A stretch of 64,000 bases of DNA, from assembly GCF_001677475.2 (NCBI RefSeq), contig NZ_CP015229.1; one strand, 5' to 3'. The position numbers were made by a program, and so were the translations under genes. Position 1 is the stretch's first letter. Each line of letters starts with the position of its first letter. Shown in pieces: positions 15,960 to 18,151 of the stretch. The DNA comes from Escherichia coli. GTDB taxonomy: Bacteria > Pseudomonadota > Gammaproteobacteria > Enterobacterales > Enterobacteriaceae. Below the pieces are notes generated by a model. It was not told where the DNA came from. It did not search any database and saw nothing but the letters and a program-made list of their open reading frames with translations.

Positions 15960-16226
15960 TTATTGCCTGGTTGACGCTTCTGAATCGTAATGCACCACGC
16001 ACTGCCAGTCGCTGCCCTGCTGGCAATATATCGCTTCGGTCTGCCCAGGGATCACCCATTGTATTTCCTCGCCGGGCGGACAGGTCAGCCAAATGCATAA
16101 CCCGCAGCCACCGCGTAAATCACGGGGAATATCGCTGACGCGAAAAGTCATGCCCGCTGCCTGCAACGCCTTGCGGGTTTGTATGACGCCGACCGTGGAG
16201 TGAAACAAAAATAAAAACTCTTTCAT
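15960..16226 (-). CDS. Small DUF3343-like protein, translationally coupled to yjiL
   Basis: 88-aa ORF; ATG at 16226 overlaps the yjiL stop (ATGA). Sequence pattern (FLFHSTVGVIQTRKALQAAGMTFRVSDIPRDLRGGCGLCIWL) resembles DUF3343. Confidence 0.55.
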   Translation of the reverse strand: MKEFLFLFHSTVGVIQTRKALQAAGMTFRVSDIPRDLRGGCGLCIWLTCPPGEEIQWVIPGQTEAIYCQQGSDWQCVVHYDSEASTRQ

Positions 16227-16990
16227 CGGCGTTTTCTCACTCGTTGACCAATTACCGCTGCGCCAATTGCGCCAGCAAATTGCGCATCAGGATGGGTATT
16301 TACCGGCATTCCCAGATGAGATTCCAGCATCCGGGCAAACGTCTGGCAATGACTAACGCCACCAGTAAACAGAATCGGCGCTTCACAGGAGAGACGAGCA
16401 ATGAAATTGGCACTCCGCCGCGCCATCGCGTTAATCACTCCGGCGAGAATCGCTTCTGGCGCGACGCCCGCTGAGCGCAGGCTGATCACTTCTGATTCGG
16501 CAAACACCGTACACATACTCGTGATCGCGTGCGGCGTGACATTTTCGGTAATGCTGTCGAGTTGCTCGACGCTGGTGCCAAGCGTGCGCGAGATCACCTC
16601 CAGGAAACGCCCGGTGCCCGCCGCGCATTTGTCATTCATCAGGAAATCGCACAGGTTACCGTCATCATCAAGCTGAATCACTTTGCTGTCCTGACCACCG
16701 ATGTCGATTACTGCGCGCGTTGCTGGCGCAAGAAACCGTGCGCCCAGCCCGTGACAGGAGATTTCCGTCACCTGTTTATCGGCAAAATCCACCAGTTGCC
16801 GTCCGTAGCCGGTGAGCGTCAGAAACGGCGTTGTCTCTAACCCTTCACGCAGCTTTTCCCACGCTTCAACAATGGCGTCGGCGGGGCGAAATGGCGTTGG
16901 AACGAGGAAACGGCGCGTAATTACGCCGTCTGCCAGTAAGATCCCTTTGGTGGCGGTTGAGCCGGAATCAATGCCAATCGAATATGCCAC
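16223..16990 (-). CDS. yjiL: BadF/BadG/BcrA/BcrD-type ATPase (2-hydroxyacyl-CoA dehydratase activator-like) YjiL
   Basis: Translation MAYSIGIDSGSTATKGILL... (acetate/sugar kinase fold ATPase); start taken at GTG 16990 with AAGGAG 5 nt upstream; the track starts at GTG 16996. Confidence 0.8.
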   Translation of the reverse strand: MAYSIGIDSGSTATKGILLADGVITRRFLVPTPFRPADAIVEAWEKLREGLETTPFLTLTGYGRQLVDFADKQVTEISCHGLGARFLAPATRAVIDIGGQDSKVIQLDDDGNLCDFLMNDKCAAGTGRFLEVISRTLGTSVEQLDSITENVTPHAITSMCTVFAESEVISLRSAGVAPEAILAGVINAMARRSANFIARLSCEAPILFTGGVSHCQTFARMLESHLGMPVNTHPDAQFAGAIGAAVIGQRVRKRR

Positions 16991-16999
16991 TGCCACTCC

Positions 17000-18151
17000 T
17001 TACAGCATCTCAATAAAGGCCGCCACACGGGTGCTGAGCTGCCCGATATCTGAGGTGGAGTAGTCTGTTTCAATAGCGATATAAGGAATGTTGTGCTGAT
17101 GACGCACATGACGTTTAATCGCCAGCGATTCTACCGCGTAGGTATGGCACGCCTGCAAAATCACATCAACTACGCCATCGACCTGATATTCTTCAACCAT
17201 CTGGCTGAGCATTTGCAGGCGCTGATCGTTCGGCGAAACACAGGAGCAGCCAATCGCCAGATATTTATCCGCCAGCGCGTCGTAGACATCGCCCGTTTCT
17301 GCCACGCATTGCTCGGTCGCTTTCGCCCCGGTGCAGTTTTCATAACCGACAACCCAGCCGCCATTCTCTTCAATCGCGCGCACCACTTTTTCTGCTGCGC
17401 CGCCAATCGGGCAGCCGGTGATTAAAATGCGCGGACGCGGGTCCAGTCGCTGGCCTTCTTCCCACTGCTGACGAACGCGGGCGGTCATTGCATCCAGTTC
17501 ATTGATCAACGCCTCTTTATCGAACCGGAAGGTTGCGCCGTAAACCACTTTCAGAATGTCGCTGCCGCTAAGCGCCGGAGGATTTAACTGCCCAAGATGA
17601 TAAAAATTAGCCAGTGCGCGACGTTCGCGGTTTTTCAGCGCAATGGCATCGCGCAGAGCATCTTCGCTAATTTCGTGCCCAAAACGTTCTTCTATCGTTT
17701 TTTGCAAGCGCAGCATCTCGGCTTTCCATAACGCGCGTGAGGCATCGTCCTCAACGCTGTTTGGCAACTGCATCACATGAACGGGCTTAAACTCCGCCAT
17801 GTATTCATACATTTTCTTTTTGCCGTCGCAGGTGGTTTCACCGACCACCAGATCAGAAAAGTAGAAGTAGGGGCATTTATCGGTTTTGCCGAAGCCGTAG
17901 CTGCTTTTAATCAGCGGGCAGAGGTTGCGCGGCAGATCTTTCTCCGCTTCTTCAATGGTTTCATCAGAGGTGGAACAGAGCGAAACCACAATCGCACCGG
18001 CTGCCATCGGGATCTCTTGCGGCATAAAGGTGCAGTAAGTGCCAACCAGCGGAATGCCGCGCTCCTTGAGATCCATGACGGTGAGAAAGCCTTTCTGGCG
18101 AGCTTCAGAGAACTGATCGAAAATGGCGGGTAGATCGGTGACAAGTGACAT
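17000..18151 (-). CDS. yjiM: 2-hydroxyacyl-CoA dehydratase (HgdB/D-component-like) family protein YjiM
   Basis: 383-aa product from ATG 18151 (AGGAA SD); recognised as YjiM; stop abuts the yjiL SD. Confidence 0.8.
   Translation of the reverse strand: MSLVTDLPAIFDQFSEARQKGFLTVMDLKERGIPLVGTYCTFMPQEIPMAAGAIVVSLCSTSDETIEEAEKDLPRNLCPLIKSSYGFGKTDKCPYFYFSDLVVGETTCDGKKKMYEYMAEFKPVHVMQLPNSVEDDASRALWKAEMLRLQKTIEERFGHEISEDALRDAIALKNRERRALANFYHLGQLNPPALSGSDILKVVYGATFRFDKEALINELDAMTARVRQQWEEGQRLDPRPRILITGCPIGGAAEKVVRAIEENGGWVVGYENCTGAKATEQCVAETGDVYDALADKYLAIGCSCVSPNDQRLQMLSQMVEEYQVDGVVDVILQACHTYAVESLAIKRHVRHQHNIPYIAIETDYSTSDIGQLSTRVAAFIEML

Follow-up and report, generated by a model that had tools for sequence, protein, structure and literature searches.

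The yjiM-yjiL-ytiA operon of Escherichia coli joins a predicted double-cubane cluster reductase and its ATPase to a DUF3343 protein with a possible role in sulfur and selenium trafficking

The double-cubane cluster protein (DCCP) of Carboxydothermus hydrogenoformans (DCCP_Ch) and its ATPase DCCP-R (CHY_0487/CHY_0488; structures 6ENO and 7YYL) constitute the described system closest to the operon yjiM-yjiL-ytiA of Escherichia coli, which we have analysed in a 64,000-nucleotide stretch of contig NZ_CP015229.1 (assembly GCF_001677475.2), hereafter termed the window. A 2020 review by the authors of the DCCP work already counts YjiM, with YjiL at its side, among the probable double-cubane proteins of class II (PMC7317905), and no physiological substrate has been established for any double-cubane reductase (PMC7317905; bioRxiv 10.1101/2022.07.06.499078). 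A relationship to selenium was described by Haft, who found 955 of 970 proteins of the family NF040772 to originate from genomes encoding SelD and who offered two readings of this co-occurrence, the processing of selenium compounds or a formally selenium-bridged cofactor, in a text that names YjiM and leaves DUF3343, YedE and YedF unmentioned (Haft 2022, bioRxiv 10.1101/2022.07.06.499078). The DUF3343 family, to which the product of ytiA belongs, has in turn been proposed to act as Se/S chaperone, based on its conserved cysteine and on neighbouring genes for YedF and selenocysteine (Sec) lyase, in a study whose STRING table for Slackia lists a CoA-substrate-specific enzyme activase and a 2-hydroxyglutaryl-CoA dehydratase subunit as partners without further comment (Lin et al. 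2015, PMC5322559). A link between DUF3343 and double-cubane proteins was not found in the literature library that we have searched.

The operon consists of three genes of the same orientation, which are listed below together with the signal at their first junction.

18151..17000, minus strand: yjiM, ATG start, TAA stop at 17002-17000, 383 aa, annotated in RefSeq; predicted catalytic component of the reductase, a DCCP with a double-cubane [8Fe-9S] cluster
16990..16223, minus strand: yjiL, GTG start according to RefSeq, TGA stop at 16225-16223, 255 aa; predicted ATP-dependent [4Fe-4S] electron-transfer ATPase of the activase / DCCP-R type
16226..15960, minus strand: ytiA, 88 aa; DUF3343/Se_S_carrier protein (PF11823)
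16996..17002, minus strand: yjiM stop codon fused with the yjiL Shine-Dalgarno sequence (TAAGGAG), from direct reading of the sequence

An earlier note on this DNA, made from the letters alone, had placed a three-gene operon at 15960-18151, and its coordinates are exact on re-reading of the sequence. The open reading frames (ORFs) are translationally coupled and closely spaced, with 9 nucleotides between the yjiM stop and the yjiL start, and both of the proposed contacts are found, namely the overlap of the yjiL Shine-Dalgarno sequence with the yjiM stop in TAAGGAG at 17002-16996 and that of the ytiA start with the yjiL stop in ATGA at 16226-16223, which contains the ATG of the former and the TGA of the latter. 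A second in-frame GTG for yjiL is located at 16996, from which the product would be 257 aa long. No Pfam family was matched by the ORFs of 83-118 aa that run antisense, on the plus strand, or by an overlapping ORF of 62 aa. Among 5426 complete E. coli genomes compared by megablast, 5386 contain the region, and RefSeq names its products a double-cubane-cluster-containing anaerobic reductase (yjiM), a putative 2-hydroxyacyl-CoA dehydratase activator YjiL, and a DUF3343 domain-containing protein or putative Se/S carrier protein (ytiA). The statement that the operon is functionally undescribed thus holds insofar as its function is not established, but its genes are annotated in RefSeq and YjiM and YjiL have been named as a putative class II DCCP system (PMC7317905). 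As judged from its sequence, the locus is a conserved and previously annotated operon that was already known; the feature is real and not novel as a locus, and it is its interpretation as 'dehydratase-like' that has to be upgraded.

The relationship of YjiM to the DCCPs is reflected in its score of 531.3 bits against the equivalog model NF040772 of double-cubane-cluster anaerobic reductases, which exceeds the cutoff of 350, and in a match of 407 bits to PF06050. In a sequence search of the PDB, the closest solved relative is DCCP_Ch (6ENO/7YYL, E = 2.2e-74), followed at a distance by BzdN (E = 1e-19) and HadC (E = 3e-13). YjiM and DCCP_Ch share 39% identity and, in an alignment to 6ENO, nine cysteines (C40, C59, C78, C93, C108, C273, C302, C304 and C335 of YjiM), and YjiM is said to possess the motif of seven cysteines that ligates or overlooks the [8Fe-9S] cluster (PMC7317905). 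The published spacing of this motif, taken as a literal regular expression, does not match YjiM, and the spacings of DCCP_Ch itself deviate from it by 1-2 residues. In both organisms the gene for the ATPase is located directly downstream, and a low-potential electron transfer coupled to ATP would likewise be common to both. YjiM is thus assigned as a class II double-cubane cluster protein, for which cluster binding and ATP-dependent reduction are predicted. A proteomics preprint reports increased YjiM levels after antibiotic treatment and says nothing on function.

The proposal of the earlier note that YjiM would be one subunit of a 2-hydroxyacyl-CoA dehydratase is correct with respect to the HGD-D superfamily, but not with respect to the family within it. 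The dehydratases (HadBC/HadI, HgdAB/HgdC) share with the E. coli proteins the PF06050 superfamily and the family of their activators, with HadI and HgdC among the best matches of YjiL in the PDB. However, they contain a pair of alpha and beta subunits with a single [4Fe-4S] cluster each, in contrast to the double-cubane pattern of cysteines in YjiM, which scores 93 bits against the HadC equivalog (cutoff 700) and 20 bits against that of HadB (cutoff 750). A second HGD-D gene that could complete such a pair is absent, as only one ORF in the window fits a profile of the DCCP/HGD-D type, and a single PF06050 gene is found in every enterobacterial locus examined. We have therefore rejected the identity of YjiM as dehydratase subunit in light of the HadC and HadB scores, the match to 6ENO and the missing gene for a partner. 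The class I benzoyl-CoA reductases (BzdNOPQ, MbdNOPQ; 8S02, 9G87) are more distant homologues of YjiM and YjiL, which are also driven by ATP and for which [8Fe-9S] clusters are named in the title of a 2025 paper. In contrast to the E. coli system, they are composed of four subunits and act on aryl-CoA substrates, and scores against their equivalogs are far below the cutoffs, with genes for partner subunits being absent.

The ancestry shared with dehydratases and benzoyl-CoA reductases underlies one alternative for the function of the operon, in which YjiM would reduce or dehydrate an organic substrate, for instance a CoA ester or another bulky molecule, with YtiA serving as a PII-like regulator or adaptor. 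It is in line with a structural difference to DCCP_Ch. As a class II protein, YjiM is the shorter of the two by 38 residues and is missing the N-terminal part to which closure of the substrate channel is attributed, with the alignment starting at residue 62 of DCCP_Ch and residue 26 of YjiM. Since these channel-closing helices are missing, a larger substrate is thought possible (PMC7317905). Conversely, genes for an acyl-CoA ligase, a CoA-transferase or a second HGD-D subunit are found neither in E. coli nor in the other enterobacterial loci, which, together with properties of YtiA and of distant loci described below, renders this explanation unlikely.

The assignment of YjiL as an activator-type ATPase, which had also been made in the earlier note, is borne out by scores of 362 bits against TIGR00241 (cutoff 125.4) and 257 bits against PF01869, and by matches in the PDB to HadI (4EHT), HgdC (1HUX), MbdQ (E = 5e-51) and DCCP-R (7YYL_E). 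Its residues C122 and C160, located in the motifs DKCAAGTG and CTVFAESE, are conserved with HadI, and we take them to be the ligands of a [4Fe-4S] cluster that bridges the dimer as in the structures of HgdC and HadI. YjiL is thus assigned as the [4Fe-4S] partner of YjiM, with ATP hydrolysis as its predicted activity. A review that cites a study of proline-rich peptides and the yjiL-mdtM cluster (PMC4576061) assigns to MdtM and YjiL only an accessory part in peptide uptake.

The third gene encodes a genuine member of the DUF3343 family, as had been suspected for the 88-aa ORF, with a match to PF11823 of 49.2 bits (E = 3.6e-13, cutoff 25), and it is annotated in RefSeq as ytiA. Orthologues at 54-80% identity are distributed across the Enterobacteriaceae and were detected in Escherichia, Citrobacter, Klebsiella, Raoultella, Kosakonia, Phytobacter and Atlantibacter in a search of 5.8 billion proteins. 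They conserve the motif DIPRxLRGGCGLC, in which G39 is replaced by Ser in three Klebsiella sequences. The ratio of nonsynonymous to synonymous substitution rates (dN/dS, from pairwise Nei-Gojobori comparisons) amounts to 0.18-0.21 for the whole gene and to 0.05-0.16 for codons 1-62 where dS is unsaturated, compared to 0.04-0.17 for yjiM and 0.06-0.24 for yjiL, a pattern of purifying selection on the 88-aa frame. The earlier note would have been refuted by a frame that lacks conservation among relatives, which is not what these data show. YtiA evolves much faster than YjiM and YjiL. The gene order HGD-D, BcrAD, Se_S_carrier and the overlap of 4 nucleotides in ATGA are preserved in E. marmotae, Citrobacter (C. 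amalonaticus), a Klebsiella-like contig and Atlantibacter (A. hermannii), and also on a more distant contig (L003), where the DCCP is 83% and the carrier only 35% identical. In each of these genomes the flanking genes differ, and it is this retention of order and overlap within changing surroundings that indicates that the three genes travel as a unit. The protein identities of all three, as a DCCP, its ATPase and a member of the DUF3343 carrier family, can be regarded as close to certain.

The conservation of ytiA bears on the possibility that its reading frame has arisen by chance or is in decay, being situated at the margin of a genomic islet, which would leave yjiM and yjiL as the only functional genes. 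Such an origin might be suspected from the 3' third of ytiA, which is a recombination junction that differs sharply between E. coli lineages, and from the length of the protein, which varies between 81 and 91 aa across the full-length copies examined. It is contradicted by the Pfam match above cutoff, by orthologues with an invariant motif in many genera, by the dN/dS values of the core, by the conserved ATGA coupling, by a structure prediction of high confidence and by the occurrence of the same family inside DCCP operons of Bacillota and Actinomycetota. In light of the conservation data, we consider this explanation as already refuted, and ytiA as a real gene under purifying selection.

To define conserved features of YtiA, 1.8 billion cluster representatives were searched in full with HMMER, and 38 diverse DUF3343 members were aligned. 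Invariant among these are F8, P34 and C41, and nearly so G42. The AlphaFold2 model calculated from this alignment (predicted local distance difference test, pLDDT, of 91) shows a PII/ferredoxin-like fold with beta-alpha-beta-beta-alpha-beta-beta topology, in which C41 is placed at the end of a ten-residue loop connecting beta2 and beta3. A sequence search of solved structures did not reveal a homologue of YtiA, and the best matches of its fold, which are weak, are to PII/GlnK signal proteins (Foldseek E ~0.02, TM ~0.5). Although this resemblance would suit a regulator of an enzyme with an organic substrate, the invariant Cys-Gly of YtiA argues for thiol chemistry. The protein may in this respect resemble the persulfide relays TusA, DsrE and SufE/CsdE, as a small single domain that would carry one cysteine on an exposed loop and whose gene is located beside that of a client enzyme. 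In the Enterobacteriaceae, C41 is part of an invariant C41-x-x-C44, and in firmicute operon copies a second cysteine directly beside C41 (CC) is common. Both features, and a weak match of YtiA to the ferredoxin-like CxxC segment of FwdG (E = 0.13), would be compatible with a small redox or iron-sulfur protein that feeds electrons to YjiL, using its CxxC either as a disulfide/dithiol couple or as ligand of a shared cluster. However, the match to FwdG is not significant, only one cysteine is invariant throughout the family, of which many members contain CG[LI][SA] without a second cysteine, and the potential of a dithiol couple is far too positive to reduce the cluster of an activase. We thus consider an electron-donating role of YtiA as very unlikely.

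A search for homologues of YjiM returned only relatives of at least 85% identity and was uninformative for the distant context. We have used an alignment of DCCP_Ch, YjiM and the L003 protein in a scan of one genome per GTDB species, which gave more than 580 loci. The 80 among them that resemble DCCP_Ch most closely were analysed. They span Bacillota, Desulfobacterota, Actinomycetota, Chloroflexota and Bathyarchaeota and constitute a sample that is not random, with some contigs being short and related species being non-independent. As queries against the ORFs of these loci we used YjiL, a hidden Markov model built from the DUF3343 alignment, and proteins that Pfam and NCBIfam had identified there. 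This comparison has revealed two relationships that are new, namely that DUF3343 genes are recurrently located in or beside DCCP-activase operons of unrelated anaerobes and that DCCP genes cluster directly with selenium-handling genes. A gene for an activase is found within 63 of the 80 loci, mostly adjoining the DCCP gene, and a DUF3343 ORF is located within 8 kb of the DCCP in 18. In 12 of the latter, DUF3343 is enclosed by the DCCP-activase unit or immediately adjoins it. Three gene orders are represented, and the arrangements are as follows.

DCCP, DUF3343, activase: Tepidibacter (four species), a Tissierellia metagenome-assembled genome (MAG), Lachnoclostridium, Dorea (two), Mordavella
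DCCP, DUF3343 (locus in which an activase was not detected): C. ihumii
DCCP, activase, DUF3343 (the E. coli order): UBA3567
DUF3343, DCCP, activase: an actinomycete MAG

Of the 80 loci, 33 contain, no further than 8 kb from the DCCP gene, at least one gene for DUF3343, YedF/TusA, YedE or SelD. YedF-like genes are present in 17 and YedE in 3, and SelD is encoded within this distance in 11 loci from at least seven lineages. Six SelD and two full-length YedF matches were rechecked against NCBIfam and are above cutoff. The chance of encountering SelD, normally a single gene per genome, in a 16-kb neighbourhood of a 3-4 Mb genome is about 0.5% by our own estimate, which is not a computed background. 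The gene directly follows that of the DCCP in two Bathyarchaeota MAGs, and a Chloroflexota MAG shows the order DCCP, YedF, SelD. In several Desulfobacterota, the order is DCCP, activase, YedF, and in four Desulfosporosinus species genes for a class V aminotransferase, SelD, YedF and DUF3343 are found within 1-3 kb of the DCCP-activase pair. In a single run of genes on the same strand, an Eubacteriales MAG (L026, 7809-13856) encodes a DCCP, an activase, an HdrA-like flavo-iron-sulfur protein, an MvhD-like protein, YedE, TusA and DUF3343, which suggests that an electron input of the bifurcation type is wired to the DCCP and to sulfur/selenium transport. The physical linkage of DCCP and selD is unmentioned in the cited literature on DCCPs and selenium. 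These recurrent neighbours in other phyla are genes of sulfur and selenium, not of acyl-CoA metabolism, which further argues against the reduction of an organic substrate.

The sites at which selD is found directly downstream of a DCCP gene, given here with our locus identifiers, are 9163-10182 in L045, 9177-10196 in L062, 6803-7885 in L078 and 2265-3008 in L057 (two Bathyarchaeota, one Chloroflexota and one Syntrophaceae MAG). In contrast to E. coli with its third gene ytiA, the Carboxydothermus-type loci examined do not contain DUF3343, and several have a directly upstream ORF of 112 aa that resembles the C-terminal half of YedF. Immediately preceding the genes for those DCCPs that are closest to the crystallised Carboxydothermus enzyme are ORFs of 112-115 aa, which are located at 1202-1540 in L011, 7434-7778 in L012, 6788-7126 in L016, 7373-7714 in L022 and 580-918 in L024. 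Of these, the ORF in L011 was compared with NCBIfam, where its match is confined to the DsrE-like C-terminal half of YedF and, at 103.7 bits, narrowly misses the cutoff of 110.

In four Lachnospiraceae loci (L065 at 6510-14764, L071, L073 and L077), a class V aminotransferase, an SclA-like desulfurase or Sec lyase, precedes a unit of a long DCCP, DUF3343 and activase. In Dorea this aminotransferase belongs to TIGR01977 and is a near-miss to the selenocysteine lyase SclA. Downstream of the unit in Lachnoclostridium (L065), genes are found for a tandem rhodanese, a VTT/DedA-type membrane protein and an HdrD-like protein. A second, short DCCP of 383 aa is encoded in all four loci. In Lachnoclostridium its full-length identity to YjiM is 57%, and in the other three it scores as high. 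The long and the short DCCP flank a single activase and DUF3343 gene in L065 and L077, and the short one is located upstream on the opposite strand in L071 and L073, both of Dorea. With a gene of the cysteine desulfurase family directly upstream of DCCP-DUF3343-activase and a rhodanese downstream, these loci are reminiscent of the placement of nifS/nifU within nif clusters, and they could be explained if YtiA acted as a maturation factor, which together with desulfurases or sulfurtransferases encoded elsewhere would donate sulfur, such as the bridging sulfide, for the [8Fe-9S] cluster of YjiM, whose substrate would then be unrelated to sulfur and selenium. A single invariant cysteine, as typically found in persulfide relays, would be appropriate for such a carrier. 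However, a SelD and a YedE transporter beside DCCP genes would not be expected for plain iron-sulfur assembly, DUF3343 genes are also found next to those for YedE, YedF or Sec lyase in the absence of a nearby DCCP, and 62 of the 80 DCCP loci contain no DUF3343 in their vicinity. A role in cluster maturation thus appears doubtful, and we assign to it and to the reduction of an organic substrate roughly half the weight each of the explanation that we prefer.

This preferred explanation, to which we attribute a probability of roughly 0.4, describes YtiA as a cysteine-based relay for sulfur or selenium that serves the reductase and that is probably tied to selenium supply. It combines several propositions that differ in their strength. 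That YtiA is a functional partner of the reductase is probable, because its gene order and ATGA overlap are conserved between differing flanks and because DUF3343 is found in DCCP-activase units elsewhere. A sulfur- or selenium-reducing role of the operon is a more tentative assignment, which falls somewhat short of even odds, and trafficking of these elements appears as its most likely physiological role, in view of SelD, YedF, YedE and DUF3343 near DCCP genes, the co-occurrence of DCCPs with SelD and the proposed chaperone function of DUF3343. DUF3343 genes in neighbourhoods of YedE, YedF, SelD and Sec lyase (PMC5322559) belong to the same Pfam family and share the same invariant cysteine with ytiA, which, in contrast to them, is part of a reductase operon and not of a selenium gene cluster.

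In the mechanism that we envisage, by analogy with the C. hydrogenoformans system, the YjiL dimer would accept an electron from ferredoxin or flavodoxin and, driven by ATP hydrolysis, would transfer it energetically uphill to the [8Fe-9S] cluster, from which YjiM in turn would reduce a substrate that is hard to reduce. YtiA would be an integral third component, whose Cys41 may carry sulfane sulfur or selenium and either present it to YjiM for ATP-driven reduction or receive the product. A second thiol, C44 in enterobacteria or the Cys-Cys of many firmicute copies, could hold selenium as selenotrisulfide or resolve a mixed intermediate. In a concrete version, selenide, the substrate of SelD, would be released under anaerobiosis from Se(0), a perselenide or a selenotrisulfide bound to the carrier. 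The Se(0)/HSe- couple is, approximately, far more negative than thiol/disulfide or persulfide couples, and selenium as substrate would thus explain the need for an electron of very low potential boosted by ATP.

Several observations weigh against this explanation. The reduction of a persulfide should not require an ATP-boosted electron, and the rationale of a low potential is thus plausible for the version with selenium only. To our knowledge, classical screens for mutants in selenium utilisation have found only selA-D. No selD, yedEF or desulfurase gene is located near the operon within the 64-kb window, and a Sec-containing DUF3343 protein, with TGA read as cysteine, was not found in the loci L003-L092. 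The paucity of DUF3343 among the DCCP loci, already held against a role in maturation, applies here as well, and 47 of the 80 contain none of the sulfur/selenium genes, although in both cases some contigs are short. The sample consists of those loci closest to DCCP_Ch, and the background rate is only an estimate. The small molecules that DCCP_Ch reduces in vitro include acetylene (PMC7317905; bioRxiv 10.1101/2022.07.06.499078). Finally, no DUF3343 protein has a demonstrated biochemical function, and the name Se_S_carrier is derived from gene neighbourhood (PMC5322559).

A more far-reaching variant would have YtiA deliver selenium to YjiM itself, for a cofactor consisting of a selenium-bridged double cubane [8Fe-8S-Se], which would be a fourth use of selenium in bacteria. 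With YtiA encoded inside the operon, the idea of a selenium-bridged cofactor put forward by Haft gains a candidate for a delivery protein, yet we regard this variant as improbable. How bacteria hand selenide to SelD is a long-standing question. If the observed linkage reflects function, this question and that of the substrate of DCCPs both become testable in E. coli; if it does not, the operon is one more uncharacterised anaerobic iron-sulfur system. The advance is modest but useful, since the recurrent three-component architecture and the clustering of DCCP and selenium genes bring together the lines of work on DUF3343 as chaperone and on DCCP and SelD, without thereby proving a function.

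Upstream of yjiM, two conserved elements were identified.

18196..18234, minus strand: putative operon promoter, composed of the box GAGAGATCAA at 18234-18218 and a -10-like TAATAAT (TATAAT-like) at 18202-18196; conserved across four genera, with a promoter function proposed on this basis
18157..18175, minus strand: putative hairpin CCCGT-GGT-ACGGG of the 5' untranslated region at 18175-18163, abutting the yjiM Shine-Dalgarno sequence AAGGA at 18161-18157; stem invariant and loop variable in four enterobacterial genera

In an alignment, the promoter-like elements are retained in Escherichia, Citrobacter, Klebsiella and Atlantibacter despite different upstream genes. A simple sigma-70 scan found no convincing promoter for yjiM, which we ascribe to a weak -35 element, and an equally simple scan detected no terminator after ytiA. 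The hairpin is contained in the minimum free energy structure, and a search of 15800-18400 against Rfam gave no real match, including the hairpin. As covariation is absent in the alignment of four genera, it is a putative structure that is unproven. A site for FNR was considered upstream of yjiM and dropped, since only an ATCAA half-site is present there and the left half, judged by eye in the alignment, is a poor match.

At its other end, the operon enters a variable region, which starts within ytiA.

15960..16043, minus strand: divergent 3' third of ytiA, the start of a mosaic junction into the espX6 islet, from the drop in identity and the contrast in synonymous differences

The identity to the K-12-like allele is about 98% up to nucleotide ~183 of ytiA (window position ~16043) and about 60% beyond, and megablast matches to most genomes end at position ~16016. 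The proportion of synonymous differences (pS) is 0.87 in the tail and 0.095 in the core. This mosaic junction accounts for the length of YtiA of 88 aa compared to 85 aa in K-12. Between ytiA and yjiK follows an inserted gene of low GC content (34%) for a pentapeptide-repeat protein of 657 aa, which is annotated in O157 genomes as the type III secretion system effector EspX6 (junction and islet 13602-16043, minus strand), and this ytiA allele together with the islet is found in about 620 of 5426 E. coli genomes. On the opposite side, an ORF of 318 aa at 21287-22243 (plus strand) occupies the position of the Rpn-family recombination-promoting nuclease that RefSeq places between yjiR and mdtM, and it is intact here and in strain JNEC-KY178 and a pseudogene with an internal stop in a K-12-type genome. 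A second variable segment near the operon contains an ORF of 1746 aa at 5796-11036 (minus strand), which is located at the position of the inverse autotransporter gene iatD in strain JNEC-KY178, where K-12 carries kptA, yjiH, yjiG and iadA beside yjiJ.

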